Origin: Okamejei kenojei
Lineage: Eukaryota
Reading direction: 5' to 3'
DNA length: 64,000 nt
Assembly: GCA_035221665.1 (NCBI GenBank)
Contig: CM069133.1
Span: 51,584,001 to 51,648,000 of the forward strand
Below are positions 965-56,611 of this stretch, piece by piece. The notes beneath the pieces are model-generated. The model was not told where the DNA came from and searched no databases. It saw only the letters and a program-made list of their open reading frames with translations. Positions within the stretch are counted from its first letter, which is position 1. Each line of letters starts with the position of its first letter. Both the position numbers and the translations under genes were made by a program.

Positions 965-2222
965 ATGAGCAAGACCAGAGGGAGGAAATCTGCAGCTCGT
1001 CCCCGTTCGTCTTCCGTTGGGGAACGTTCTTTGGAGGGGGGGCAAGAGGCGGCAGGAATAACTACCGAGCCGAGCCCAGCACCGCCAGTGCAGCCTGAGC
1101 AGCTACCTGGAGCCAGAACAGACGGTAGTATCTGACGATTCGGATGAGGATGCCTCACCGCTCGAGAGCGGCACCGGCAGCCGCCTAAGCCGAATGGAAC
1201 AGCTTATGGAGCAATTGCTCCAGCGAGATCTGCTGAGAGAGCAGCAGCAGACTCGCCAAGGGAGCTCAGGCACTCCCGCAGTGCCCTTTACGGCACTGAC
1301 CATTGCTTCACCTTCTTTTGAAGGCAGCATTGGCGACCAGGTCTAGGCTGGTCAAGATGAGGGGTTGTTGGCTGAAGATGTCCGGAGTACGCAGGGTGTA
1401 CAGGCTCAGGAAGAGCTGCTGGGTGTGGTCGACCGCTAGTTGGTCATTCCACGAGCGGGTCGGCCTTTAGAGCCAAAACTTGCAGCCAGCATTGACCACC
1501 TGTCCTCAAAACCCCTAAAAGAACAGGTGGTCAATGAGGCTCTTGAACAATATACAGCCCCAGAAAATTGTACATCATTGAATGTACCAGCTGTAAACAG
1601 CCAAATATGGGGACATTTGGCGCAGAACATCAGGAACCTGGAGTTGAAGCTCCAGAAAATCCTTAAACTCCTGACTGCAGGAATAACATCATATGCTCGG
1701 TCCATTGATGGTGTGGACATCTCCACAAATCACCAAGACACATTAGCTCTGCTGGGCACCACTCAATATGAGATAAACAATTTACGTTAGGAAATCATCA
1801 AGCCTGCCCTCAACCCTAAATTTGCGGGACTTTGCAAAACACCAGGTTCAGAACCTCCAATTCTGCTCTTTGGAAAGGACCTTCCGAAAAAGGTGAAAGA
1901 CCTAGAGGAAGAATCCAAGACCTTTGGTCTCGTGAGGGCAGGTTTGGGACCGAGCAGACCTAACAAACCCAGGCGGCAGTACCCCACGGCGTCCACCAGT
2001 CGTCGACCACCATATGTGACTGGTGAAAGCTCGGGGTCCGCAACCATTCCCCGTAAGCCTTTTTTAGGCCAGGGCCCAGAGCGGACCCCATGGAAAATGC
2101 GCCACCCCCAACAACAACAACATCAACATCAACAGCAGCCCTCTACAGCTCAGCAGAGACCTCATCATCCAGCGAAGAGGCAGGAGAAGCACAGTAACCA
2201 TGGAGTAGGGGCTCTATACTAA
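965..2222 (+). pseudogene. DIRS gag-like ORF1, broken by stops and frameshifts
   Basis: ATG at 965. Fragments 1440-1790 (YTAPENCTSLNVPAVNSQIW...LQKILKLL) and 1893-2222, plus the intervening LFGKDL motif, resemble DIRS ORF1. Position is upstream of the RT. Confidence 0.7.
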
Positions 2223-4099
2223 CAGGGGGAAGATTGCACTTGTTTTTGGATGCATGGGAATCCATCACTAATGACAAGTATATACTCAGCAGCATTCATG
2301 GCTATAAAATTGACATTGTTCATGAAAACATTCCGCCAGTTCAGTATATACCCCAAAGGGTATTCACACTCTCAGTCAAAGAGAAACAAGAGGGTCAAGC
2401 TGAACTGATGAGGCTACTAGCAAAAGGTGTCATTGAAAGAACAAAACATGAACCTTTGGAATTTGTGTCTAATATTTTCACTAAAACTAAAAAAGAGGGT
2501 GGATGTCGCATCATCATTGACTTAACTACTTTAAACAAGTCTGTTAAGTATATACATTTCAAGATGGAAACTTTTGAAACAGCCAGACTATTGATTTCTA
2601 GAGGTTACTTTCTAGCAAGCATTGATTTAAAAGATGCCTACTACTCAGTACCCATACACAAGGAGCATCGTAAATGCTTAAAGTTTATCTGGATGAAACA
2701 GCTATGGCAATTTAAAGCCTTACCAAATGGTCTAACCTCCACTCCAAGGTTGTTCACTAAAATCTTAAAACCCGCTTTGGCATTATTGAGGAAACAAAAA
2801 CATATAGTCATGGCGTACTTAGACGACATTTTAATAGTAGGGAAAACCTTGGAGACAGCTATTTTGGCAGTAGCAGCCACCAAATGTTTGTTTGAAACTT
2901 TGGGGTTTGTCATACATCCAGATAAATCCAATTTTACACTGTTCACTACCATGGACTATCTTGGATTTACGATTGATACTGTTCGCATGATTGTAACTCT
3001 GCCGAGGGGGAAAGCATCAGAATTGGCACTATCATGCAATGAACTAATGGATAAACATCAGTCAACCATACGGTAGGTAGCTAGAGTTATTGGTAAAATG
3101 GTAACAGCTTTTCCAGCTGTACAATTTGCGCCTTTGCACTATCAAAATTTGCAAAGAGCAAAAGTGCACGCACTAAAGCAAAACTCAGGTCACTTTGACC
3201 GAGTTATGAATTTAACTGCTGAATCCATTCCAGAGTTACAATGGTGGACAAAGAACATTAGGCTCAGTTCCAGTCCCATAATAATCACCAACCCAGTATT
3301 AACCATTCAAACGGATGCCAGTGCTTTGAGCTGGGGAGCAACTAACATGCAATCCAGCACAGGGAGCAGATGGACTAATTCTGAATCATCCTGCCTACAG
3401 ACACGGGGTATCAACTACTTAGAAATGTTGGGTGCGTTTTATGGTTTAAAAGCATATTCATCTAATACGCGTCATGCACATGTCCGGTTGCAATTAGATA
3501 ATACCACGGTGGTGGCTTATATCAACCACATGGGTGGTGTAAAGTCCATATCGTGTGACAATTTGGTCAACCTAATCTGGCAATCGTGTGTCGAAAGACA
3601 TATTTGGTTATCAGCAACTTACCTACCAGGTAAGCAAAATACATTGGCAGACACCACGTCACGCAAATTTAACGATAACATCGAATGGATGTTAAATCCC
3701 AAAGTATTTGCTGAAATTACAAAGCAATATGGCACACCAGATATCGATCTATTTGCATCCAGGCTGAATCACCAGGTACCAACGTATGTCGCTTGGGAAC
3801 CAGTCCCTGAGGCAGCAGCAGTTGATGCATTCACGCAGCATTGGGGGAAAATGTTATTTTATACTTTTCCTCCTTTCTGCCTCATCAGTCGGGTATTACG
3901 CAAGATTCAATTGGATTCCGCTTCAGGAATCTTGATAATACCCGACTGGCCTACACAGCCATGGTTCCCAGTGGCCCTCGACATGGCTGTCGAAACACCG
4001 TTGGAATTCCCCAGCAGTCCAGAATTATTAATCCACCCAGTGTCAGGCATTAGTCACCCGTGCCATGACAGAGTCAATCTCCTGGCTTGCAGATTCTAA
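2200..4099 (+). pseudogene. DIRS pol: reverse transcriptase, RNase H and methyltransferase-like domain; in-frame TAG at 3074-3076
   Basis: RT motifs SIDLKDAYY, LPNGL and YLDD. RNase H motifs TDAS, INYLEM, LDNTT and NTLAD. C-terminal DIDLFAS...DAF...YTFPPF...PDWPTQPWF is typical of the DIRS1 MT domain. Confidence 0.92.
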
Positions 4100-4376: not shown

Positions 4377-4894
4377 AGTCTTCACGTAGTCATTCACGTG
4401 ACTCCGAAATAAAATAGTGAGATTAAATGAGAACTTACCAGTTCGAAGATTGATCTGTATTTTATGAGGAGTTACGATGAGGGATTACGTGCCCTCCGCT
4501 CCCACCCTCTATTATACAGATCAACTGGTAATTAAGTTCTTATTTTTTCTTTACTATATTTATTTCAATTGTTGTGTTTTTTCTGTGAATCCACACCGCT
4601 GTTTTGAAGAATGTCGTGCATGCGTGCTGGACGGGATCTTCACATAATCCCTCATCGTAACTCCTCATAAAATACAGATCAAACTTCGAACTGGTAAGTT
4701 CTCATTTAATCTCACTATTTTATTCCACTGAATTTTCATCACATTGACATTCTTTCACATCTTAATGTATTTGAAACAATTGCCACCAAAGATAGATAGA
4801 GCATAAAATATTTGAGATTGTTGGCACTTTGCATAAATCGTACTTCACACATATCAGGTTTTATGCATATCTGCACAACTATATCAAACCACTA

Positions 4895-6583: not shown

Positions 6584-8212
6584 CTGCAACAAAAGAGTAT
6601 TGAATTATAAACTACATACACAGCTAATTGTCCAGCAGTACTCAAACTTCCTGCTTGGACATCAAAAATAATGTTTATGAAATATTTTCCTGAATTCTAA
6701 TCACTCTGATCTTTTCATCATGCACACGGTAAATTTAAAATAAATACAGAAATCAATGTTGCACTGATAAGCAAAAACTAGTAATTGGTTCCTAATCCTC
6801 TGCCTCAGCAATGGTCTCGATAAATAAGCTTTGTCAGTCTTTGACAAAAAAACAACCTTCAACACTGTTGCAATTATTATCTGAGCTATAAAAATGTTAT
6901 TGCAATCATGTCATCTCTCATTTTTCCCAACACAATTTGAATCGTTTCTTAAATGCAGTTAATTATCGTTAACCTAAGGATAAACTGATTTTATAAATAT
7001 GATTGCAATTGAATGAACGAGGGAATCCTGAATAATACAAAGTGCTGCAGTAACTCAGCTGGTCAGGCAGCATCATCTGTAGAGGGAATGGTGACATTTT
7101 GTCGAGTTCGAAGATGGGTCCTGATTTGAAATGGTGCCTACCATTCCCTCCACAGATGGCGCTTGACCCAGTCATTATAGTGCAAGCTCAGTTCAATAAT
7201 AAGCTGCTGGAGGAGATAGTTGAGGCAGGTACCAGAATAGCATTTAAGAGACAATCGTACAGGTCCATGGATAGGACAGGGTTAGATGCTTATGGCCAAA
7301 TGCAGGCAGGTGGGAATAGTGTAGATGGAATGTTGGTTGGTGTGGGCAAGTTGGGCTGAAGGGCCTGTTTCCACGTTTTATGACTTTCTGTCCCTAATAA
7401 TGACTTCTGTTCACCTGGCATGCATTTCTGAAAAGGCTCAAAGTACCAGCTGGATTGCAAGCTCAAAATGAGAGGGTTTAAGCTAGTCTGGCTAGATAAA
7501 TTTGAAAGGTGCCAGAGAAATGGGGAACCAGACATATTGTACCATTATTTAAGAAAACTGTTCTGTCAGCTTAATCTTGGTGGAAGGCAAGAAAATCTAA
7601 GGGACTGTTCTAATCATCATCTCTGTGGATGAAGATTAACCACCGATTAACCAACCAGCATGGATAGGATGATGACATTGAAGCAAAAAAACACAGGTCC
7701 AAAAGTCCAAAATAAAAATCGAAAATCCCAGAGAGACTCAACATGTCAGACAGTGCCTGTGAAGAGAAAGAATGAGGCAAAGTTTCAGCTGTGATTCTGT
7801 AAGGTTTATTTTCTATCATTCCTTTAGCAGCCCTAGATATTCCATCAACATTGGCTCTATCTTTTTATCAACAGAAGCTGACTGATCTGCTGAGCATTTC
7901 TATTTTTGTTAAGAGAAAGTTGTATTGAACAAAATTGATTTGAAGTTTTGAAGAGGCAACAAGGATGTCGACATGGATTTCTACCAAGGCGCCATGAGGA
8001 AGATTGATCAGTGAAATTTAAGGTGCCATGATGTTCTGCAGGCTCAGTAGGAGGTGTCACAATGCTTGTGATATTCATTAATGGATTGCACCAAAATGTT
8101 AGAGGTATTTTTAAGAAGTCAGCAGCTAATAAGAAAAAAAGTATTGTGGTAATAGTGGGGGCAAAAAGTTATTTTCAGACAGGAACAAGAGAGCAGTTAG
8201 CAAAAAAAGTGG

Positions 8213-9244: not shown

Positions 9245-10229
9245 CTTTAACAAGAAAATTCATGTTAATTTCATTCACAGCAATGAACTGTGTGTGTGAT
9301 TTTCTTTTTTTTTTAAACTGACATTGATCCTGGAAACGATCAACCATTATGCTATAATTAGATTCCAATTATATAAATTCACATATATTTTAATCCAAAT
9401 TGCAATGACAACATTCCATGAATTCCTGCTCCAGACTCCTCTCAATTTACAGGCAGTGCATCATCTACTGTGAAGACACAGTGCTGGTGTAGCTCAGCAG
9501 GTCAGGCAGCACCTCACGAGAATATGGATAGGCAACATTTTGGGTCGACACCCTTCCGAGTCTGAAGAATGGTCCCGACTTGAAACGTCACCTGAGTACA
9601 TCTATCTTTGACTTCACCCTGTGCCAACTGACAGAATCAATAAGCACAAGGAATCTATTTTAATGCTGTATTGATGACAATATACAATGCTAGAAACTAA
9701 TTCCAAGCATTTCTTTCTTTTTTAACAAAGCAAATTCTATAATCTTATTTAAAATACAAAAATAATTCCCAACAAAAATTATGACATAATATTCTGAAGT
9801 TGGTTGTGTGGACTAGACTGCAATACGAACCAGTAACAAGCTGAAAATATACAACCATGACCCACTGGCATCTAAAAGTAAAGCAATAGTGTTACAGTTA
9901 CAGATAAAGTGCAGATAAAAGAAATGCAAGGGCTGCAATGAAATCTGTTGAAATTTCTTGCAGCCTTGGACAGAGCATTTTCCAAACTAAGCTGTGATGC
10001 ATCTCAGTGGGATTCTTTCTACGTTTGAGTTCAGTTCAGTTCAGTTGAATTTTGTTTATTGTCATGTATAGTGAGAAGCTTTTGTTGCATGCTGACTAGA
10101 TTAGAATCTAGCCATCCACAGTGAACAGATGCATGATAAAGGGAATAACGTGAATAAAATTTAGTGCAAGATAAAGTCCAGTAAAGACCGATCAAAGATA
10201 GTCCGAGGATCTCCAAAGAGGTAGATAGT

Positions 10230-10510: not shown

Positions 10511-10964
10511 GTTCAGTTCAGAATACTGACACAAAGATTTAAACAAAATTCTGAAGGACATTACAGACTCGCTGTGACTGCTTCCATTAGTAACATGACA
10601 CCCATATTTTCTGAAGGAACATTAACTTCACAAAGAAGACATGAATGAAAAATAAATAGTTGATATCAAGGTCTTCAGCCTTTAGGAATATTAGCCTAAA
10701 TCTGCTGTTGTATACTTTCAGATAAATCATCCACTGCCATAGCTGGAAACTTTCTTCAATTCTGGCATTAATAGTCATAGCATGAACTCTGTGACAAACT
10801 GTGAGACTAGTTTTAATTGAAAGTTTCCAGAGATGCCCCTCTGACCCGCTGAATTGCTCCAGCACTTTGTGTCTTTTCTTCAATTCTGGCATTAATAGTC
10901 ATAGCATGAACTCTGTGACAAACTGTGAGACTAGTTTCAATTGAACAAGAACAGTCATTAACAA

Positions 10965-11185
10965 AAAAGACACAAAGTGCTGGAGTAATTCAGCGGGTCA
11001 GAGGGGCATCTCTGGAGAACATGGGTTGGTGATCTTTTGGGTCAGGAATCTTCTTCAGATTGAAGAAGGGCCCTGACCCAAAACATCACCTATCCATGTT
11101 CTCCAGTTGCTGCATGACCTGCTGAGTTACTATAGTAGTTTCTGCCTTTTTTTGTAAATCAGCATCTGCAGTTTCTTGTATCCAC
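10965..11185. mobile_element. palindromic PLE-terminal element
   Basis: Two inverted copies of the Penelope terminal sequence, centred on cttcttcag-a-ttgaagaag at 11059. Confidence 0.8.
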
Positions 11186-11924
11186 ATTAACAAAACGGCA
11201 TCAGCTAAGGAGTTGGAGGTGGAGCAAGTTATATGACTGAGAACTCACAGCCTATGTGCAGTAAAAAATAATCTACTCTGAAAATAGTCTCTTTAAAGGA
11301 GAAAAGGAACAGAACCTACAGTGACATCTCTCTTTAAAAGCAGGGTAATATTTCCAGAACATTCCTTGCATGGAGGAGTATTGCAGATACATTATGCAGA
11401 TATTAATCAATCTTAGTCAGGTATAGAGGTGTGGTCTGCAGGTTTACTGTTAACAGGGAATATGGCCCCATGATCTCTTCTTGAGCGGGTTGAAGTGCTA
11501 CCGCCCCTATTGCTACTCTTGGAAGCTCTGAAGTGCATCAAATTAATTGAAATATCCAAATTCTTTTAACTCCTATTAACATAATGAAATCACTTTGTTT
11601 TAGTTGTGATTGAACAAGAATATTTGATCTTTGTTGCTGTTCTTTTCATTCTTTCAATTTAATTGCAGCATGTAATTCTTTTTCACTCCACATTTTGACT
11701 ATTTCAGTACATGTGAGAATAGTAAACCAATACCAACCTATCTGACTATGCACATATTCAGTGTTTCCATATACACATTCTATCTTCTATGATCTCTACC
11801 GTACCAGTGAAAGATCATATGATTCAATGCTTCCACACTGGCCTGGTCTTTGAATAGGAAAGTGGCCATAATATTTGTCTGCTGAATTAACATGCATTTT
11901 ATGTTCTAAACATATTAAAAATGA

Positions 11925-18268: not shown

Positions 18269-18694
18269 CAGCTTATCTTTGATGGGTTGGAGGGCAGGAA
18301 CTATATGGCTCAAAAGGTGGTGGAAATGGGCCGAAAAGATGCTGAAAGCTTGTTAATCTCAGCTCTAGTCCGGATGAGGTGTAAACAAACAGAAGAGGAA
18401 TGAGCACGGGGAGGGAGAAAAAAAATCAATCCTGGAAATGAGAAATACTAATATTTCTCATTTCTCAAGGAACTTTCATTTGGAGCAAGAATGGAAAAAA
18501 AGCATCAAAGCACCAATCCTAGAAATATGCCTCTCTTCACTTTTTGTGAAACATAGAGAGGAACTGTACTCAGGATTGCCTTTAGTATGACTAGGATCAC
18601 CAGTGTTATATTAAAATAGAGCAAATCACTAAGTTTTAAGGGCTTGTCGGTCACACTTCGCAATTGCAGTGCCCTGATACTTATTTTGAAGGCT

Positions 18695-18900
18695 AGAGAC
18701 AGAGTGCCTGAGTAACTCAGCGGGTCAAGCAGCATGTCTGGAGAAAAGGATGTGTAATGTTTCGGGTCTTCTTTCTGAAGAAGGGTCCTGACCTGAAACA
18801 TCACTGATCCTTTTTCTCCCGAGATGCTACCTGACTCGTTTAGTTATTCCAGCACTTTGTGTCTACCTTCAATATAACCCAGCATATGAAGTTCCTTTCT
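18695..18900. mobile_element. palindromic PLE-terminal element
   Basis: Inverted arms gagtaactcagcgggtca... / ...gacctgaaacatcac...gttattccagcactttgtgtc around ctgaagaaggg at ~18775. Confidence 0.75.
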
Positions 18901-23801: not shown

Positions 23802-26148
23802 TTGGAGACAGAAGAAACAATAGTTGCTGATTTGCCAAAAAGGACACAAGGTGCCAGAGTAACTCAGCCTATCAGGCAGCATTGTCCAGAGATGTTGCCT
23901 GACCTGTTGAGTTACTCCAGCACTTTGTGTCATCACTGTGAATCTTTTATACACCTTCTGGAGCTTACTCACACCTTTTCCGTGGCGTGGCGCAGAAATG
24001 CACACAATACTCGTTGAGTGACCTAGCCAATATATTCTACAACTGTAACCTGACATCTCAAATCCTGCCTGTACCTTCTAAACCATTCTGTCTGCCAGTA
24101 ATGCTACTTTCACTACCTATTGGTCTCTCTGTTTAACACCCATCTCCTGGGCCCTGCCATTCACTGTATATATCCTCACAACTTTAATTTCTCAAAATGC
24201 ACTTTGTATTGCTTGACTGCTAACTTGTTCTCTGGCATGTGTTGTCTGTCACCATTCTATTTATTCAGTCAACAGCAAGTGACAGCTGGAGTACATATTA
24301 GTCTAGGTGTGCCTTTAATGATTTATAAACCATTATCTTTCAGCTTTATAAATTAGTCGTTGAGCTGGCGTGTAGGTTAATTTGCCTCTGTAAAATGCTG
24401 CTAGTGCGTAGGGAGTGGATACGATACGATAAAACTTTACTCATCCCCGGAGGGAAATTGGTCTGCCAACAGTCTCAACACATAAAGTACACAAAAAACT
24501 TAAAATTAAAAGTGAAAACATAAAGAAAAAGACAAGCGACTGTTGTCCGGGTGCCGTGTGCACAGCGCCTTCACCGGAACAAATAAACAAACAACACAGA
24601 CTTATCCCCTGGGCAGAGGATTCTAAACGAGAGATGCAAAGGTAACAGAGAACAAGTGTGAATGAGTTATCGATGTTTGGCAAGGGCCTGTTTTCATGCC
24701 GTTTCTCTAAACTATACTACTCACATTTCTAGATGCATGTGTAGATATCCTTATAGAGGTGGATAAGATCATGAGAGGAATACATAGGTTAAATGCAGAG
24801 AGTCCTTTACCCAAATTAGGGGAATTAAGAACCAGAGGGCATAGGTTTAAGTTGAGGGTGTAAAGATTTAATAGGAACCTGAGGGATAACTGTTTTTACA
24901 CAAAGGGTGGTGGGTGGTTGGAACCAGCTGCCGGAGGAGGTAGTTGAGGTAGGTTCCATCACAAAATTAAAAAAAAATTGAACAGCTATATGAATAGGAT
25001 AGGTTTAGAGGGATATGGGCACGGGCACAGGCACAGGCACAGGCAGGTGGGATTAATGCATATGCAGCATGTTGGTCGGTGTGGTCAAGTTGGGACGAAG
25101 GCCCTGTTTCCACATTGTATAATACTATGAGATGATGTGGCTTCACATTATGGAAAATTGTAATATGGATCCCTGACTTGGAAATGCAAACACTACTACC
25201 CCCCCCCCCCCCCCCCCCCCCACCCACACATATAGTAGGGGTCACCTGTCTTCTTGAACACCCAGGTTGAGTTGTGCCAATTACAACCTCTTGCCCAACA
25301 CCAGTGATACCAAGGAACTAATAGTTGACTTCAGAAAGGGGAAGTTGTTAGACCACATGTCTGTTTTCATTGGGGGGTTGTTGGTGGAGAAAGCTAGCAG
25401 CTTTAAATTCCTGGGACCTGATGTATTGGATGATCTGTCACTGTAGGCTCACCAGCACATCTACTTCTTTAGAAGTTGGAAGAGGTTCAGCATATCAACA
25501 TAATTTCAACAGATATACTGGAGAATCATGAGCCTGGTAAGACAATTCATATATATTAGATGTTCTAAGGAGCAGTAGCCTTCAGGCACCTCCCAAGCTA
25601 TTTATTTTCCTTGGAGTGTGATAGAGTTTCCAGTCTAAGACCGCTTTGCATTAATCAGTTTCTGGATCAATCCAGAGAAATCACTTATGTTTTCTGTTTT
25701 CTAGTAGTAAAAAGGATTTGCTCATGACAATGCATCACAGGATTTCGAGAAATGTGAATGCACTGTGGTTCCTGTTCTGTAGGATACAGTTGTCTATGAA
25801 GCATTATCTAAGAAGAGTTTTTCTCGGGGCATCTTAAGACCTTTTACATTGATTTTCTCAAACAGATTTCTGTTATTACCCTTAGTTTGGGGTCAGGGTG
25901 ATGGAAAAATGCAGTGGATTAGACAGTAGTCGGAGATGTCCACACATTGTATGCTCAGATGACAACGCTGTCAAACAGGTGTCTGAGTTGGGTTGTTGCC
26001 ATCAGGGCTTGTACTTGTCTCTCTAATGAAACATTATCTGATCATACCTTATTCCAATCATTTTGTAAGAAGAGAAACTCTGTCAGAATTAGCTTTCCCT
26101 GCTCTCTCTTTGCCAGCCACACCTTTCGGGAGATGAATAGCCAGGAGG

Positions 26149-26252: not shown

Positions 26253-27849
26253 ACCTTTCGGGAGATGAATAGCCAGGAGGGAACTTCTAACATGCATATG
26301 ATAATAATGGGGTTGATCATTTCGAAGTCTAGACGACGAATTAGAGGAATTAAATAGCGTAATAATATACAAAGACAAGTCTCAGGGTTGTCAAGGTAGT
26401 TATTTTGAGGCTTTGCAATGAAGTGGTTCGATCATAAATTATTGCTTTTGATTCTGATAAATTGCGCACAGAAAAATACATATTTTACAGAAATGAAGGA
26501 ATCATCAAGTATGGAGAGAATGATCTGTTTGGAAAGATTTAAGAGACCTAAGCTTTATGGTCAGCAAAGAAGACAGTTAAAGTGGGGAAATACATTAAGG
26601 TAAAACCAATAAAATAGTAGGGTTAAAGTAAATTAAATATTGAAAAAAAACTAGCATTTATTGACTTTCTTAAACTGAGTGGGCTGCCTCTCATTTCAAA
26701 GATTAGCAAAAAGAAAAATACATGTATGTGGATCAAGAGTCACACATACACAGATTGAAGAACAGTGGCAGATTTACTTCCCTTGACCTTTCAAGGAGCG
26801 CGTGAAGAGCATTAGGGTGAATAAATCCACAAGACATGATGGAATTTATTTCAGGTTATTAAGAGAGGCAAGAGAGAAGTTTGCAAGAGCCTTGATGAAG
26901 ATCATTTTTATTTTAGCCAGAGGATGGTGGGTGTCCGGAACATGCCGCCGGGGGGGGGGGGTGATAGCAGATACAATAATGGTATTTAACAGGTTTTTAG
27001 ATAGGCACATAGATATCCAAGGAATGTTCATCACAATCATACAGAGGAGATTAATTCATCTTGGCATCATGTTCGACATGAACATTCTGGGCCTGTTCCT
27101 GTGCTGTCTTGCTCTATGTTCTTTGTACATGTGTCTTTAAAAATGACAATCACTGGAAAATCACTATTAATGATGTTCAGTTCCACATGTATTTAACTAT
27201 ATGAATGCAAACTCCCATTTGCCCTAGTTGGGTTAAAACCTTCTCCATGAAACCATTGGTCTAGGCCTGTAAAATATTCATTCTGTAATATCATAATAGA
27301 ATCTTATTTGCATTATATAAAATAAAGCCAAATTAATAGGATTAATGCACATTCAATTAAAATAGATACCAGAACATTAAAACAAAATGTTATATTTTTC
27401 CACAACGTAGTAAATATCCGGCAATAGCCAAGTAGCATGCAACTGACTGAATGTAGATACCTAAAATTTAAGGCCACAGATTGCAAAGACCCACGCTAAT
27501 TGAAGTGCTGGAGTAACTCAGCGGGTCAGACAGCATCCCCAGAGAAGATGGATAGGTGGTATTTCGAGTCAAGACACTTCTTCAGTCCCAACCCAAAAGG
27601 TCACCTATCCTGCCTGACCTGCTGAGCTTCTCCAGCACTTTGTGTCTTTTGTTTTTGTAAACCAGCAATTCCTTTTCCTGCATTCAGGGCTAATTGAATA
27701 TATCTTTCAAAGAGATGGCACAGGTAGAATGAAGTGTACAATCCAAAATGTTTTGTTTTATTGTGCTCATAATGTGATGTAACTATTGCTGCAAGGCCTA
27801 CGTTTATTGACAATTTCCAATCAGCAGTTAAACTGAGCTCATATTACTG

Positions 27850-28465: not shown

Positions 28466-29088
28466 TGGTGTCCATATACTCCACAGATATTGCCCAACCT
28501 GTTGAGCTACTCCAGCACTTTGTGTCTTATTTTGTAAACCAGCAATTGCAGTTCCTAGCTTCTGCAGGGGAAGGGGAAAGCCTGGCGTGTGATAGGTGGA
28601 CCAAAGGAGGAGGAGAGGAGAAATGGGTGCAAGTCCAGTTGGGGCACAAGAATAAGAGGACGGAAAAAAGAGGAAACAAGGGTTGTTTGTTGGTTAGATC
28701 GCTAAAATTGGAGAATGCAATCCTTATCTAACACCGTTTAGAGAGGTATATGGATAGGAAAGGTTTAGAGGCATATGAGCAGAATGCAAACAGGTGGGAC
28801 TAGTGTAGATGGGGCATGTTGGTCAATGTGGGCATATTTCCACGCTGTATGACTCTATGACTATGTGCTGTGAGGCTGCCATATACAAGCTTTTTATTGT
28901 ACTTGCGCAAGAAGGCACTGCAGATGTTGGTTTAAAACGAAGATCGGCGCAAAAAACTGGTGTAACTCAGCAGGACAAGCAGCAATCCTGGAGAGAAGGA
29001 ATGGAAAGATGCTGCTTGTCCCGCTGAGTTACTCCAGCTTTTTATGTCTATTTTCATTGTACCTGTACTTCACCCGACTTGTGCATAC

Positions 29089-34767: not shown

Positions 34768-35349
34768 CATTTGGCCCTATACAATCTGCTTTGCCATTTA
34801 ATAAGTTATAGGCAGAATGAGTGGTGCCAGAACAACATTCCTACTCTCAATAGTAACAAGACCAAGAAGCTGATTGTTAACTTCAAGAAGGGAAAGTGAG
34901 GGACCATGAACCTATCATTATTGATGGGATACACAGAGCTGGAGTAATTCAGCAAGTCAGGCAGCATCCCTGGAGAACATGGATTGGTGACATTTCGGGT
35001 CAAGACCCAACAAACTGCTGGAGGAACTCAGGAGGTTAGACAGCATATGTGGAGAGAAATGGACTTGCAAAGTTTCGGGTCGGGACTCTTCACCTCTATC
35101 GACGAGTCCAAGTGCAGAATAGGTAATCACTTTGCTGAACACTTGCGCTCTGTCCGCAGGGTCATCTGGAGTTCATGGTTATAAGCTACTTCAATGCTTT
35201 GGGTTTATTATTGTCACAGTGAGAAGCTTTATTGTCACATGTACCCAAGTACGGTGAAATTATTTTTTTCCATATAGTTCAATGACCATCTTATGAATAC
35301 ATTGGGCATAATCATTCGAAGAATAAGAAGGCAAGACAGTAGTCCAAAG

Positions 35350-35645
35350 GTAGACACAACATGCTGGAATAACTCAGCAGGCAGCATCTCTGGAGGGAAG
35401 GAATGGGTGACGTTTCGGGTCGAGACCCTTCTTCAGACTGACGTCAGGGTGGAGGGAGATAGATAGATAAGGATCTGTGAAGGTGTGAACACCGAGCAGA
35501 GGGAATGGAGATCAAGGAGAATGTAGAATAGATCATTGTAACAAAACAAATAGAGACAAAATGTAGTCGAAGACAGTAAGACTGGTTGGAGAACTGGGAA
35601 AGGATGGAGAGAGAGAGAGGGAAAGCAAGGGTTACTTGATGTTAG
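35350..35645 (-). mobile_element. Penelope-like 3' UTR/terminal fragment with intact hammerhead motif (35409-35436)
   Basis: gacgtttcgggtcgagacccttcttcag followed by a purine-rich 3' UTR like 55080-55330. Confidence 0.8.
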
Positions 35646-35929: not shown

Positions 35930-36745
35930 TAGAGGTGAATCCCACACCAACTGTCGGGCCTCAGTCTCTTCTATTGCCCAAACGAGGCCACATGCAAATT
36001 GGACTAACAGAACCTCATATTCCGCTTCCGTCCAAAACCTAATTGCATGAACATTGAATTCTCCAGTTTCAGGTAAATCCCTCTTGCCCGTAATCCCTTA
36101 TCTACCCAGCTTTCCACAATTACTCCCATACCCTCTTTCATCTGCTCAGTCCATTTGTCACCATTATCCTTGTACTCCCATTTTTGTTTCTTCCCTGCCC
36201 CATTTTACTGCACCTACCATCCTATCCTGTTGTTCTACCTTTCACTCCTCACCTTCCTGTTCTATCAGATGTCACCATTTGTACCCCTTTGACTTTTCCA
36301 CTGATCACTTTCAGCCTTGGTTATCATCTCCACCCTTCTCTCCCCCAAATGACTCAACTGCCAATTAATATCTGGATCCATGTAGCACTTGAGAAGACAA
36401 AGTGCTGGAGTAACTCCAGTGCTGGCAGCATCTCCCGAGTTCTCCAGAGATGCTGCCTGACCTGCCAAGTTACTCAAGCACTTTGTGTCTTCTTTTGGAA
36501 ATCAGCATCTGCAATTCCTTGTTTCCATCTAGCACTTACAAGTTCTTGCCCCACCCCTTCCTCTCTCCGCTTTCTACCAGCTTGCTTCATTCCACTCCAT
36601 CAATCTGAAGAAGGGTCTTGGCCGGAAAAGTCATCTGTCTATTTTCCTCCACAGATGCTGCCTGAACTGCTGAGTTCCACTAGCAGCGTGTTTTTCTTTT
36701 GCTCAAGATTCCAGCATGTTCAGTCTTTTGTGTCTCTTTGTTTTT
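35930..36745 (+). mobile_element. old Penelope-like 3' region with a nested palindromic terminal element (~36390-36525)
   Basis: aaattggactaacagaacctcatattccgc...atgaacattgaattctccagtttcaggtaa corresponds to the [11 protein letters not shown]...MNIEFSNFR end; terminal motif at ~36604. Confidence 0.65.
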
Positions 36746-44520: not shown

Positions 44521-46259
44521 GATTTACTTGCAATTCTTGCAGTTTCATATGCTACATTCAATGTTCACAACATAGTCTGCCCTAGATAAACACAAAGAGC
44601 TTGCGTAACTCAGCTTCTCTGGAGAAAATGGATGGATAACATTTCAGGTCAGGAGCCATCTTCAGAAGCAAACCCTTACTCTCATAATCTTGGAACTGAA
44701 GACAACAAGAAATAACATATCGGTCTGTAGAAGGGCCCCTGCCCGAAACATCACCCATCCTTTCTCTTCAGAAATGTTGCCTGACCGACTGAGTTACTCC
44801 AACACTTTGTGTCTATCTTTGGTACAAACCAACATCTGCAGTTCTTTCCAATTCCACTAGATTGGGAAAAACAGGTGCAGATTAGTTGATCTTTGGCCAC
44901 CTAACCAGACATAGTGAAGTAGCAATCTTCTGAAACATTTTTTCATTTCCACGCAATCCCCACTCAGTCACCCCATTTTAAGCTGAATTCCCCAATGGCC
45001 TCGGATGTTATACATTAGCCTTAAGCTTTTCTCAGCATTACCTCCATAGCTCAGAACTAAAAAGCCACAGTTATGGGAGTTGCCTCTTAGCACAGTGCTT
45101 TTTGCGATGGTACTAACCAGAGCAGTGCAGCAGGCCCACAATATCTGTGCTGAACATAATGCCAAGTCCATCTCTTGTCTACCTGCACATAATCCACATC
45201 CCTCCATTCCAAATCCATATGCCTATCCAAAAGCCTCTTAAATGCCATTATCATACCAGCACTTCTAAAAAGATCAATGTTATAATTTAGTTTTCCAACA
45301 ATATCACATGAATGTTTATTAATGGAATCCATCTGTACCATCTTCTCTAGAACAAAAAAAGCACTGACCCATCCTATCGAACATTTTTTCAACATAGTGC
45401 ACAAGCATTCTCAATGTTTTTATTCGGCTCGCGTCAGATGGATTCTATTTTTTTACTTCACAGCAGGCCATTTGAAGGCATCTCTGTTTGAATGCTACAA
45501 CAAATCAGCCAAATTGAAAACAAGCAGGTTATATAAGAAAATGTTGGTGATACCCAGCAGCTTCAATGTGAAGGCAGTTTTATTTTTTGGGAGTGCATAT
45601 TATTCCAGATATAAACCTACTTTATTTCTCAGCTGCACAAAACCATTTGTTACTTCCAACCTGTCCAAATATCCAGGATTCAGCAACCTTGATGATTAAT
45701 GCCACAGATTGAAGAAACTAATTCAGATATAGGCTATTAAAGTAATTATTTTACTGAACAAATCAAATTTAATTATTCTATTTTACTGCTGATTAATACA
45801 AAGCAACAAAATAAAACCCGTCTCACGGTGCGAGTTGACCCACGAGTGACCCAGAGTTGTCACTCGCGGTAATCACGTACACTAAACGTAGTGGGAACGT
45901 CGGAACTCTTGCGAGCAACTTAGCGACTCGTGGTGCTAACGGCAGGTACCCGTGAAACTTGGTAACTCGTGAAAAAAATCAAACGTCAAATTTACAGTTC
46001 AAGTTAAAAATTGAAACATTTTAAACTCGTTTATAACGTGGTGGCCCGTGCGTTTACCTTAGTGATTCGTGAGTCTACCGTGGGAACTCTTTTAACTCAG
46101 CGGGCAGGCAGCATCTCTGGAGAGAAGGAATGGGTGACGGGATGACATTTCCAAATTTCGCCAGCCCCATGTGTTCACTTTTTTCAACTAGCATCTGCCC
46201 TTTCTTGTGTATGTCATTATTTGTATCTACAGTGCCTTGTGTCTTGGCAATTCATGATT

Positions 46260-46435
46260 CACACACACACAATGCTGGGGTAACTCACACACACACACAC
46301 ACACACAATGCTGGGGTAACTCACACACACACACAATGTTGGAGTAACTCACACACACACAATGCTGGAGTAACTCACACACACACACGAACAATGCTGG
46401 AGTAACTCTCGCACACACACAATTCTGGAGTAACT
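46260..46435. repeat. minisatellite: six units of (CA)n-ATGCTGG(G/A)GTAACT
   Basis: Directly visible; the last unit continues into a normal PLE terminal sequence. Confidence 0.9.
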
Positions 46436-46772
46436 CAGCGGGACAGCAGCATCTCCGGAGAGAAGGAATGATGATGTCTCGGGTCGAGACCCTTCCTTAG
46501 ACCACTACCCAGAGATGCTGCCTGTCCCGCTGAGTTACTCCAGCATTTCGTTTATCTTTAAACCAGCATCTGGACTTCCTTCCCACATAATAACCAATGA
46601 GATTCCCCACTAAACTTCCGTGTCCTCATTGTTCCCCTCTCTGTTTTCCCCAGACCTGTATATATTTATATGTGTATGTGTATATGTATATGTGTATGTG
46701 TATATATACTTTGCATGGTTCCTGGGTTGCCTACTGCTGGGTAACACCGCGAAATATCATCCCCCTGCATTT

Positions 46773-47186: not shown

Positions 47187-48817
47187 GGCCGCTCAAAGTC
47201 AGTCACCTGAGCTGCTTCCTTCCTCGGAAGTGGCGGCCAGTTCTGCTGTCCGTGCCCGGAGCGCTGCGGCAGCCACCCAAGCTAATTCAGTCCCTGGCCA
47301 CAATAAAACCATATAGCAATGACAGCACGGAAACAGGCCATCTCTGCCATTTTACTCCGTGCCGTTTACTGTCACCTAGTCCCATCTACCTGCACTCAGA
47401 CTGGAGCATGGCAAGTGGGTTACTGACCCCAATCCCCTCCTTCACAACGCCAGACTCCCCAAATACTATGAACTGAGCTCTCCCCCCACCCCGGGAAATA
47501 CAGTATTTAAAAACATAAAGCACCAAGAAATGCACTTACCACGTTATTGGTTGCTGGAGGGTGTGCATTTTCCCTTTGTAGGTCATATCAATAGATGCGG
47601 CCACGCTGAAATAACTCAAAGCCACAGGATGGAGATGTATTTTAACATTGTTGCTTTATTAAAACATACCTTAATTCACGGTTGGCTCAAGAGTAACGGG
47701 AGAGGAACTTGGTAACTCGGAGGAGGAACTTGGAACATCGCAGAAATGACATACCCGTGGGAACTCGGTTAAACACTTGAACATAAACTTGAAGTCTCGT
47801 ACACAACCACGAGTCTTTCACTCGGGGTACCTCGTGGGTCAACTCGCACCGTGAGACAGGGCCATAAGATTCCATGACTCTACGTAGGTCTTGAATTTAT
47901 ATAGGGCTTTTAATTAAAACAATTATTTCAAGGCACAATACATGAATTTAAAATGGATTTGGACATTAAACCACATAAACAGTAGGAATTTATCCTCTTT
48001 TGGGCCATACATAATGTGCAGTAATGTAGAAATGTTGAAGAGCATTTCAGACATTTTGAACAAGGAAGTGGAGTTCAACATGTATTGGTCAATACATCAC
48101 ATATCTAGATATAATGGATGTTCAATTTCTAGCCCATGATATTATAAATGAAGCAACAAATGGGAGGAGTGCCATCCAACATGGTCAAATAATTTCACTA
48201 GAACTTTAATTCAACAGACCTAGAAATTAATTCAGCAACCTGAAATTTGTACAAAAAGGTATTTCACAACCATCTATCAGGAAAATAGGGGAAGTCTATA
48301 TATAGATATGTTGTCAGCAAAACATGCATCTTGTAAAATGAAGTTTAAAATGAGAGGGGTGGGATTACAAGATCAAATAGCAATGTGTTCTACAGCTCGT
48401 CCGAGCTCACAAGATGTTATTTCTTGTTTTCTTTAGTTCCAAGATTATGACAATAAGGGCATGGTTATGAATCAGGTCTTCAAGGCAAATCATAAATATT
48501 TGCTTGCCAACGTGTTAAAAAGATAGCAGGCGTGGACGCTATCTTAATAATGTGCATCTGACCTACATTTCTCATTGGCAGGATTCAAAGGCCTCCCTTC
48601 ACTGTGATACTCAAGAACAGGCAAACAAACACTCCTAGAAAGTTGGTTAAAGGCACACATGCTTTACTGATAAATATATGGGGAGCGGCACTTAATATTT
48701 TCGTGCAGCCTGGTGCTAATTTACTTTTGCGTTATAGAGCACGATTCCAGGCTCTTAACCATTTTTAAAAACAAACTGTTTAGGAAAGAACTGTAGATGG
48801 TGATTTAAAATCAAATA

Positions 48818-48998
48818 TAGATACAAAATGCTGGAGTAACTCAGCGGGACAGGCAGCATCTCTGGAGAGAAGGAATGGGTGATGTTTCGGGTCGAGACCC
48901 TTATTCAGACTGAAGGGTCTCAACCCGAAACGTCACCCATTCGTTCTCACCAGAGATGCTGCCTGTACCGCTGAGTTACTCCAGCAGTTCGTGGCTAC
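48818..48998. mobile_element. palindromic PLE-terminal element (best-preserved example)
   Basis: ~90-bp arms in inverted orientation, centred on ttcag-a-ctgaa at 48909. Confidence 0.9.
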
Positions 48999-49239
48999 CT
49001 ATATTAGAATACTTCTTGTACAATCAATTGTTAATGTTGCTGCACAGTAACAATGCAAGAACAAAAGAGTAAAAAGTTCAAATAAATGATGTTCCCATTT
49101 GGTGTCATTACAATATTAGCCTTTGCCAACAGCAAAATATCATAGAAGACAGGAACAAAGTGAATTTTGTGTACTTTTTAAAAAGATATAGTGATTAAAT
49201 AAATCAAATTAAAAAGTCTAAAAGCAATCAACACATAAT

Positions 49240-53380: not shown

Positions 53381-54240
53381 TTGAAGATAGACAAAAATGC
53401 TGGAGAAACTCAGCGGGTGAGGTAGCATCTATGGAGCGAAGGAATAGGCGACGTATCGGGTCGAGACCCTTCTTCAGTCTGATGTTGGGGGGGCGGGGGG
53501 CAGGAAAAAGAAAGGTAGAGCCGGAGACAGTAGGCTGTGGGAGAGCTGGGAAGGGGAGGGAGGGAGAAAGCAAGGACTACCTGAAATTGGAGAAGTCAAT
53601 GTTCATACGGCTGGGGTATAAACTACCCAAGCGAAATATGAGGTGCTGCTCCTCCAATTTGCGGTGGGACTCACTCTGGCCATGGAGGAGGCCCAGGACA
53701 GAAAGATCGGATTCGGAATGGAAGGGGGAGTTGAAGTGCTGAGCCACCAGGAGATCAGGTTGGTTATTGCGAAATGAGCAGAGGTGTTGGGCGAAGTGAT
53801 CACCAAGCCCGCGAGTGGTCTCACCGATGTAGAGCAGTTGATACTTGGAACAGCAGATGCAATAGATGAGATTGGAGGAGGTGCAGGTGAACCTCTGCCT
53901 CACCTGGAAAGACTGCTTGGGTCCTTGGATGGAGTCGAGGGGGGAAGGTAAAGCTACAAGTGTAGCATTTCCTGCAGTTGCAAGAGAAAGTACCAGGGGA
54001 GGGGGTGGTTTGGGTGGGAAGGGACGAATTGACCAGGGAGTTACAGAGGGAACGGTCTCTGCGGAAAGCAGAAAGGGGAGGAGATGGGAAGATGTGGCCA
54101 GTGGTGCAATCCCGTTGGGGGTGACGAAAATGTCCGAGGATTATGTGTTGTATGCGACGGCTGGTAGGGTGGAAGGTGAGGACAAGGGGGACTCTGTCCT
54201 TGTTACGAGTGTGGGGATGGGGAGTGAGAGTGGAGCTAAG
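53381..54240 (-). mobile_element. Penelope-like element 3' part (GIY-YIG endonuclease and terminal repeat); continues at 56612-56840
   Basis: Encodes QRFTCTSSNLIYCICCSKYQLLYIGET...HFN...[14 protein letters not shown]. Colinear with 17563-17930 once the CR1 insert is removed. Confidence 0.92.
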
Positions 54241-56611
54241 TGGAGTGCAGTCAGAAACGGGTGAATTGATCATGGGGAACAAGGACATGGCAGACCAATT
54301 GAATAATTACTTTGGTTCTGTCTTCACTAAGGAAGACATAAATAATTTGCCGGAAATAGCAGGGGATCGCGGGTCAAATGAGATGGAGGAACTGAGTGAA
54401 ATCCAGGTTAGCCGGAAAGTGGTGTTAGGTAAATTGAATGGATTAAAGGCCGATAAATCCCCAGGGCCAGATAGGCTGCATCCCAGGGTACTTAAGGAAG
54501 TAGCCCCAGAAATAGCAGATGCCTTAGTGATAATTTTTCAAAACTCTTTAGATTCTGGAGTAGTTCCTGAGGATTGGAGGGTAGCTAATGTAACCCTACT
54601 TTTTAAAAAGGCAGGGAGAGAGAAAACGGGGAATTACAGACCAGTTAATCTAACATCGGTAGTGGGGAAACTGCTAGAGTCAGTTATTAAAGATGGGATA
54701 GCAGCGCATTTGGAAAGTGGTGAAATCATTGGATAAAGTCAGCATGGATTTACGAAGGATAAATCAAGTCTGACGAATCTTATTGAATTTTTTGAGGATG
54801 TAACTATTAGAGTGGATAAGGGAGAAGCAGTGGATGTGTTATATCTGGACTTTCAGAAGGCTTTCGACAAGGTCCCATACAAGAGATTGGTATACAAACT
54901 TAAAGCACACGGTATTGGTGGTTCAGTATTGATGTGGATAGAGAACTGGCTGGCAGACAGGAAGCAAAGAGTAGGAGTGAACGGGGGTTACACAAAAAGC
55001 TGGAGAAACTCAGCGGGTGCAGCAGCATTTAAGGAGCGAAGGAGATAGGCGACGTTTCGGGTCGAGACCCTTCTTCAGACTGGTCAGGCATCAGGGAAAC
55101 GAGAGATATAGACGGTGATGTGGAGAGATAAAGAACAATGAATGAAAGATATGCAAAAAAGTATCGATGATAAAGGGAACAAGCCATTGTAAGCTGTTTG
55201 TAGTGTGAAAATGAGAAGTTAGTGCGACTAGGGTGGGGGAGGGAGATAGAGATAGAGGGAATGCCAGGGCCCGAGGGCTGAGGGAGAGGTGGAAAGGGGA
55301 GGAGACAGCAAGGGTTAACAGAATTGAGAAAATTCAATGTTCAAGCCCAAGGGATGCAGACTCCCCAAGCGGAATATGAGGTGCTGTTCTTTCAACTTGC
55401 GGTGTTGCTCACTCTGGCCGTAGAGGAGGCCCAGGACCGAGAGGTCGGATACGGAATGGGAGGGGGAGTTGAAGTGCTGAGCCACCGGGAGGTCGGGTTG
55501 GTTTTTGCGGACCGAGCGGAGGTGTTCGGCAAAACGATCGCCAAGCCTCCGCTTGGAGTGAACGGGTCCTTTTCAGGATGGCAGGCAGTGATTAGTGGGG
55601 TGCCGCAAGGCTCAGTTCTGGGATCCCAGATATTTACAATATACATTAATGATTTGGACGAGGGAATTAAATGCAACATCTCGAAGTTTGCGGATGACAC
55701 AAAGCTGGGGGGCAGTGTTAGCTGTGAGGAGGATGCTAGGAGGCTGCAGGATGACTTGGATAGACTGGGCAAATGCATGGCGGATGCAGTATAATGTGGA
55801 TAAATGTGAGGTTATCCACTTTGGTGGCAAAAACAGGAAGGTAGACTATTATTTGAATGGTAAATTAGGAAAAGGGGAGATGCAGCGAGACCTGGGTGTC
55901 ATGGTACACCAGTCATTGAAAGTTGGCAAGCAGGTGCAGCAGGCTGTGAAGAAAGCGAATGGTATGTTGGCATTCATAGCAAAAGGATTTGAGTACAAAT
56001 GCAGGGAGGTTCTACTGCAGTTGTACAGGGTCTTGGTGAGGCCACACCTGGAGTATTGCGCACAGTTTTGGTCTCCTAATATGAGGAAAGACATTCTTGC
56101 CATAGAGGGAGTACAGAGAAGGTTCACCAGACTGATTCCTGGGATGACACAACTTCCATATGAAGAAAGACTGGATAGACTCGGCTTGTACTCGCTGGAA
56201 TTTAGAAGATTGAGGGGTGATCTCATTGAGACTTACAAAATTCTTAAGGGGTTGGACAGGCAAGATGCAGGAAGATTGTTCCCGATGTTGGTCCAGGACA
56301 AGGGGTCACAGTTTAAGGATAAGGGAGAAGTCTTTTAGGACCGAGATGAGAAAATCGTTTTTCACACAGAGAGTGGTGAATCTGTGGAATTCTCTGCCAC
56401 AGAAGGTAGTTGAGGCCAGTTCGTTGGCCATATTTAAGAGGGAGTTAGATGTGGCCCTTGTGGCTGAAGGGATCACATCTGAAGAGGTATGGAGAGAAGG
56501 CAGGTACAGGATACTGAGTTGGATGATCAGCCATGATCATATTGAATGGCGATGCTGGCTCGAAGGGCCGAATGGCCTGCTCCTGCACCTAGTTTCTATG
56601 TTTCTTTGTTT
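54241..56611 (+). mobile_element. CR1 LINE inserted into the Penelope element
   Basis: Motifs [29 protein letters not shown] and FADD; (GTTTCTAT)-like tail; CTAAG duplicated at 54236-54240 and 56612-56616. Confidence 0.93.
54986..55554 (-). mobile_element. young Penelope-like 3' fragment inserted into the CR1
   Basis: 12-bp TSD ggagtgaacggg (54974-54985 and 55555-55566), endonuclease remnant, and an intact hammerhead motif at 55051-55078. Confidence 0.92.

Follow-up and report, generated by a model that had tools for sequence, protein, structure and literature searches.

The window analysed here, a 64,000-nucleotide (64-kb) stretch of Okamejei kenojei contig CM069133.1, contains a palindrome centred on the A at position 48909. 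Both the palindrome, called by the first-pass annotation at 48818-48998, and that centre stand: 85-nt arms at 48818-48902 and 48913-48997 lie 10 nt apart and are 89% complementary, and the predicted fold of the transcript reaches -149 kcal/mol (z -18.6), with 0 of 200 shuffles as good. The full element is longer than first described, spanning 48777-49000, and was mapped onto an old-subfamily arm with the A of CAGTCTG taken as +1 (Table 1). Its arms are, as originally read, terminal repeats (pLTRs) of a Penelope-like element (PLE). The flanks of this old copy retain no target duplication, and no empty site was found: the contigs of four DNA-like sequencing runs break at the element on both sides, so the target duplication of this copy is not recoverable.

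Table 1. Features of the 48909 element and related copies in the window (positions from the first letter of the window; arm positions relative to +1)
Feature	Positions	Strand	Identity
Two-armed insertion (7110 copy), very decayed	7032..7169		
Two-armed insertion (9560 copy), right arm only ~45 nt	9474..9606		
Two-armed insertion, older, tailed on the right, joined at +3/+5, 11-nt duplication remnant	10963..11187		
Two-armed insertion, +19/+3 junction	18694..18900		
Two-armed insertion (23885 copy), both arms end near +45	23845..23931		
Two-armed insertion (27590 copy), +4/+14, 10-nt duplication remnant	27503..27686		
Two-armed insertion (29005 copy), tail on left arm, +33/+51	28904..29055		
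One-armed parent copy, min-hammerhead core intact	35348..35441	-	
Two-armed insertion (36438 copy), +45/+44, 8-nt duplication remnant	36397..36528		
Two-armed insertion, ~55-nt spacer, +3/+2, absent from the first-pass list	44584..44857		
Two-armed insertion (46503 copy), +2/+37	46415..46587		
48909 element: tailed arm, pLTR +1..+134 including decayed min-hammerhead and tail	48777..48911	-	90% to old-subfamily arm
48909 element: tail of ~35 nt, left arm only	48777..48813	-	
48909 element: decayed min-hammerhead of left arm, core CUGAAUA, G8 lost	48878..48908	-	
48909 element: asymmetric junction with short microhomology, where one arm extends at least to +1 and its partner begins at +9	48900..48919		
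48909 element: tail-less arm, pLTR +9..+97, ends at inner start site	48912..49000	+	88%
Parent copy, 5'-truncated: PLE ORF end (linker Cys motif, GIY-YIG with internal Cys), pyrimidine-rich 3' region, pLTR	53395..54306	-	

In the window as a whole there are some 40 arm-like pieces of this repeat. The ten two-armed copies on the first-pass list all map as head-to-head arms, but most of those described there as centre-deleted are in fact asymmetric; in the 23885 and 36438 copies both arms stop near +45. The short interrupted palindrome TCAG(A/T)CTGA was also found where it had been reported in non-palindromic copies, at 35433-35441 and 53474-53482. Across 40 arbitrarily chosen 10-kb pieces of the genome (400 kb), adjacent arms were head to head in 22 cases, tail to tail in 2 and direct in 4, and head-to-head pairs thus exceed chance expectation; their density in this sample is about 55 per Mb, or some 150,000 by extrapolation. 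Part of the 10963 arm is present, together with its flanks, as a tail-to-tail inverted duplication at 10780-11016, a local rearrangement, and tandem short arm fragments with (CA)n tracts adjoin the 46503 insertion at 46093-46420. Overlapping ORFs at 1440-4099 resemble gag, RT and RNase H and presumably belong to a DIRS-like element; near them, at 4408-4724, is an 84-nt, 98% inverted repeat of a different kind.

The start exon of a gene that we take from its exon motifs to be ClC-3-like lies on the minus strand at about +70.7 kb, some 6.7 kb past the end of the window, and the next exon is found at about 9.3 kb of the window. The copies at 9.4-64 kb, the one at 48909 included, are therefore likely to be intronic. 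A Pfam search with a short piece of a ClC-3-like exon gave no match. The window copies are predicted to place double-stranded RNA hairpins in the pre-mRNA, and at their genomic density such stubs would supply many intronic hairpins, similar in kind to those formed by inverted Alus.

The element that supplies these arms is represented both within and beyond the window. Positions 53577-54306, upstream of a one-armed copy, hold the end of a PLE ORF, and a near-full-length, interrupted copy of the young subfamily (L320) comprises, in order, a pLTR, a tail running into the ORF, RT, a CX4CxxC linker, a GIY-YIG domain with internal cysteines, and a second pLTR. The motifs, RT followed by C-terminal GIY-YIG, were read by eye from the translations of L320 and of window positions 53577-54306; Pfam searches with four window ORF pieces and two longer RT ORFs gave no match. 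Both ORFs carry the CCHH cysteines inside GIY-YIG and the CX2-5CxxC linker of the definition in PMC8557442, and in L320 direct pLTRs flank an ORF that follows the tail, the arrangement of EN+ PLEs. Judged by these motifs and definitions, the partner element is an EN+ PLE of the Neptune/Nematis type. The young tail junction is present in 11,681 exact copies in the genome, and the ORF 5' region is 99-100% identical to L320 in 40 of 40 scored copies. A short reading frame that starts inside the pLTR runs up to a donor-like AAG|GTATG (L320:6650-6640, minus strand), which may mark an intron at the ORF start. Internal ORF inversions like those of L1 twin priming, away from the pLTR, were seen in L155, L213 and L224, and six young copies (L104, L153, L156, L162, L220, L438) sit inside the 3' region or pLTR of older copies of the same PLE, which suggests a self-targeting bias.

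The min-hammerhead core is intact in four one-armed window copies and in young copies. The first-pass annotation proposed that the palindromes carry a hammerhead on both strands, which is true of young copies but not of the 48909 locus, where the core is broken in both arms and neither combines an intact core with helix II and a palindromic helix III. An Rfam search yielded no hammerhead match within the window, and no hammerhead structure emerged when single arms were folded.

The two outer ends of these insertions are discrete and unlike. A tail is present on exactly one arm in all 32 young palindromes, which were chosen regardless of tail (in one, L111, it is internally deleted), and the proposal of a PLE 3' tail at both ends is not borne out; the exception is L076, an older two-tailed copy from the asymmetric-centre loci. 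In 45 of 54 two-armed inserts (46 including L145) the end of the tail-less arm falls at +93..+101; in 8 this arm is shorter. Target duplications are of variable length, 11-23 nt in 52 of these 54, and duplications of at least 10 nt were found in 52 of 54 inserts as against 1 of 1500 shuffled pairs. Among one-armed inserts, 17 of 40 have a duplication beside the mapped 5' end. The two-armed form accounts for 25 of 69 tail-anchored young inserts (with a tandem array, L234, left out). EN+ PLE insertion units are described in PMC3846280 and PMC8557442 as an inverted 5'-truncated copy with pLTRs and a 30-40 bp tail at one end. The palindrome is the minimal form of this known unit: an inverted pLTR with the tail on one end.

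A test proposed in the first-pass annotation, that arms should be more alike within than between copies if the structures arise de novo at insertion, came out in favour of de novo origin. Divergence was 0.0175 within and 0.0229 between copies for the arms of 32 young palindromes (permutation p 2e-4), and 0.139 against 0.180 for 12 old ones (p 0.002). At +84 the two arms carry the same variant in 45 of the 48 inserts that could be scored (p 5e-10 from the T/C table); two inserts are T/C-discordant there, and L062 and L140 have arms from different subfamilies. The within-copy likeness and the concordance at +84 together indicate that each insert was likely made anew from one template lineage. 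Arm-to-arm conversion was considered as the source of the similarity and is unlikely, given 44 private versus 8 shared arm differences in the 32 young palindromes. Left out of the young-set counts were L029 and six loci whose flanks duplicate another locus (L085, L089, L110, L114, L122, L123). Single young palindromic insertions were seen as passengers in duplicated, G+C-rich repeats in two sets, L083, L110, L122 and L123, and L109 and L114.

Junctions do cluster at the 5' edge of the hammerhead, as had been claimed. Among 94 arm 5' ends, 32 fall in the 16 nt from -5 to +11, as compared with 8 in -100..-6 and 21 in +12..+80, the others lying further upstream; the excess per base over the flanking intervals is significant on both sides (p 3e-20 and 3e-11). 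The pivot acts as a strong hot spot rather than a fixed site. One-armed and ORF-containing copies also stop there: 6 of 30 ORF-containing copies begin at +2..+11, one of them poorly parsed, and in L365 a copy of this kind is fused to an inverted arm at +2/+3. The arms are commonly unequal: of the 25 two-armed inserts, 16 have an inverted arm that extends beyond the tailed arm in the 5' direction, 5 show the reverse and 4 have arms that end level, and the inverted arm can be longer by up to several hundred nt (L152, L214, L226, L230). In those 16 the inverted arm includes sequence missing from the tailed arm and only the tailed arm has a tail, so neither can have been copied from the other. The predicted hammerhead cut at +31 was considered as the source of the pivot and rejected: the pivot lies 30 nt upstream, and arm 5' ends do not pile up at the cut (4-5 of 94 within +29..+35). 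In 7 of 30 ORF-containing copies (L360-L389) the 5' end lies at +86..+107, the inner start site, where bound protein is a possible roadblock. In L082, L097, L101, L124 and L274 the tailed arm repeats the stretch from +1 to about +28..+38 in tandem, as if RT had jumped back near the hammerhead cut after reaching the 5' end.

The centres also carry untemplated bases of a restricted kind. By hand count, the genome's 45 places with a 2-nt spacer comprise 14 CC/GG, 4 CG, 24 CA/TG and one each of TA, TT/AA and TC/GA; GC, AT, AC/GT and AG/CT are absent from all 45. The CA/TG spacers are templated, or a C plus a templated base, or decayed CG. Fully untemplated spacers are CC/GG or CG in 18 of 18 cases, the other 27 of the 45 being wholly or partly templated, and a single C/G spacer is found at 23 genome places. 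In a set of 32 young palindromes with both arms reaching +2 (drawn from 49 of 58 places), 21 carry untemplated bases; C is the first such base on the tailed strand in 17 of these 21. A further 11 single-base loci did not show this tail-side bias (C on the tailed strand in 5 and on the other in 6), so both arms can gain a C. The +1 position lies in a word, YYANWYY, that we take to be initiator-like. Some arms end at -1 to -4, which calls for a pause or for several starts. Four sequencing runs guessed to be RNA show loose contig ends at +1/+2, but these do not count as independent evidence of a start, as the subfamilies diverge upstream of +1/+2. At full-length L1 insertion junctions an extra G marks cap copying (PMC11702581). 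The untemplated C's described here are likely copies of the RNA cap; they could also reflect an intrinsic terminal-transferase or repair bias toward C.

These observations lead us to favor, as the likely explanation, a model in which a Neptune-type PLE left the palindrome as a head-to-head stub: within a single integration event, reverse transcription was target-primed twice, once on each nicked target strand. We envision that one cDNA would start at the outer site (the tail end, +129 in the young subfamily) and the other at the inner site (+96), both probably templated by a single RNA molecule and both running toward the RNA 5' end. If priming takes place on the 5'-most terminal repeat of the mRNA, synthesis would run off at +1/+2, 3-4 bases before the hammerhead core, often adding one or two untemplated C's as likely cap copies, and the cDNA 3' ends would be joined blunt or via short microhomology. 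Earlier stops would account for the lopsided and 'centre-deleted' forms, and priming on a downstream repeat for long arms. We more tentatively propose, as a version that could well prove wrong, that paired priming is obligatory, a dimer starting two cDNAs on one RNA, 33 nt apart and one per target strand, so that palindromes are joined 'strong-stop' cDNAs run off the cap. If this were true, the centres would map the transcription start to the hammerhead edge, a 5' ribozyme copy would lack most of helix I, and a single mechanism would account for why the pLTRs are inverted, why only one side has a tail and why partial tandems are needed.

Could the palindromes instead spread as a family of their own, whether MITE-like or retroposed from transcripts of either strand? 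A genome search with the whole 181 nt returned 40 loci at 89-93%, full palindromes mostly with the same asymmetric centre, and the unmutated form of that centre has 120 exact copies genome-wide, in both polarities. However, the 40-locus set was selected by its query, and the family with a shared asymmetric centre, first suggested by this search with a window copy, fell when a centre-blind pattern was used: it found 1,959 places, the first 50 of which fall into 31 centre classes. The asymmetric centre itself recurs in both young and old subfamilies, with the tail on either side. The two equivalent terminal inverted ends and shared interior of a MITE are absent, one end being 33 nt longer, and the variable duplications show no fixed length, in keeping with the earlier view that these are not ordinary MITEs. 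Remobilisation from a transcript of either strand, part of that same earlier view, is not supported: the recurring rare centres share flanks and are thus passengers of larger duplications. By analogy with the lizard PLE protein, which needs RNA beyond its start sites, the stubs would lack a downstream binding sequence and are probably dead on arrival. Already refuted as the main route, spread as a family is hardly credible. A single cDNA that snaps back at TCAG-W-CTGA and copies itself, with later deletions producing the asymmetry, was the route originally proposed, and it is akin to the self-priming proposed in PMC3846280. The symmetric centre TTCAG-W-CTGAA on which this proposal was built is the commonest single class (11 of 50), although it is exactly symmetric in only 6, the other 5 bearing substitutions; arms share variants, and centres can change after insertion, since L109 and L114 have the same flanks and different centres. 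Yet snap-back is largely refuted for unequal-arm inserts by the longer inverted arms and is not supported as a general route; moreover, the end of the second arm is not random but lies at one discrete position (+96), the 0-1 nt loops at the centres cannot prime, and extra C's occur on either or both arms. We therefore regard snap-back as very unlikely.

Two target-primed reverse transcriptions might also have taken place with the stop at +1/+2 being a splice acceptor or branch point, or a structural pause, instead of a transcription start. A pyrimidine tract and an acceptor-like CAG|TCTG lie upstream of the core, a D. virilis intron ends at helix I (PMC4209133), and the arm ends at -1..-4 would fit. 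The D. virilis Penelope start lies 46 nt upstream of this intron, whose 3' end abuts the hammerhead (PMC2377424 and PMC4209133), which counts against a start at +1/+2. However, no common upstream exon is joined to +3 among the centres listed, the runs of C suggest run-off from a template end, and long copies read through the +1/+2 site, and we consider an acceptor or pause unlikely. Staggered cuts by the endonuclease at +96 and +129 in a longer double-stranded or hairpin intermediate, the 'EN-mediated resolution' of PMC8557442, would likewise leave one tail. Such cuts would explain both the strict exclusivity of the tail and the shared variants, and the D. virilis endonuclease requires the tail for recognition, according to work cited in PMC11167929. 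Against this, reverse transcription by the lizard protein begins at each boundary of the tail (PMC11167929), and extra C's on both arms together with independent arm lengths fit two cDNAs better, which makes resolution by the endonuclease quite unlikely. We continue to favor two primings in one integration event.

The two-armed architecture is already known, and the 48909 element is ordinary repeat DNA, useful as a constraint on mechanism. Thousands of young, near-unmutated stubs provide statistical constraints (one tail, independent arm lengths, shared variants, extra C's) that can select among models. The origin of PLE inverted repeats is stated to be unresolved in PMC8557442, and later steps are left open in PMC11167929. 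Our literature search returned no description of the 48909 PLE family, no unequal-arm argument or extra-C signature for PLEs, and no paper that explains PLE inverted repeats by paired priming or by bases copied from a cap, a model that the 2004-2006 Penelope papers may hold.

The closest relative is the EN+ PLE insertion unit, which shares head-to-head inverted pLTRs, a palindromic junction, a one-sided tail, variable target duplication and a partner ORF with RT, a CX2-5CxxC linker and GIY-YIG with internal cysteines (Neptune/Nematis type). The elements described here differ in that they often consist of only two arms of about 100-135 nt and reach very high copy number. PMC3846280 and PMC8557442 invoke self-priming or endonuclease resolution, both of which are disfavored here by the unequal arms and extra C's. 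Metazoan PLE min-hammerheads (PMC4209133) have the same core, an unpaired base before helix II, G10.1-C11.1 and a palindromic 15.1-16.1, and motif pairs there lie 100-700 bp apart on opposite strands; in contrast, helix I here is only 2 bp and the core is broken in both 48909 arms. Non-LTR retrozymes (10.64898/2026.07.22.740005) are similarly non-coding, pLTR-derived and hammerhead-bearing, but they form direct tandem arrays, whereas the 48909 element is an inverted pair without direct tandem hammerhead units. A retrozyme-like array of direct tandem ~252-nt units, each with pLTR, hammerhead motif and tail, does occur elsewhere in the genome (L234:1190-2040; G000:C1 ~18.01 Mb).

With respect to mechanism, the most informative comparison is with the PLE protein of a lizard (PAc, Poseidon of Anolis carolinensis), which cuts and extends both target strands, uses two internal start sites that bound the tail, requires RNA beyond them and is predicted to be dimeric, hammerhead cleavage being dispensable (PMC11167929). 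The paired start sites, the cutting and extension of both strands and the dispensable hammerhead cleavage all match the insertions described here. PAc belongs to another clade, however, PMC11167929 is silent on inverted repeats, tail exclusivity and cDNA end points, and in its assay the start sites were alike on both strands, which counts against priming at one site per strand. LINE-1 twin priming (PMC11702581) similarly produces two cDNAs from two target ends, head to head in one duplication, with an extra G at the template end. In L1 the second priming is internal and variable, and an inversion results; here it is fixed, 33 nt from the first, and thus the same stretch of RNA would be copied twice.
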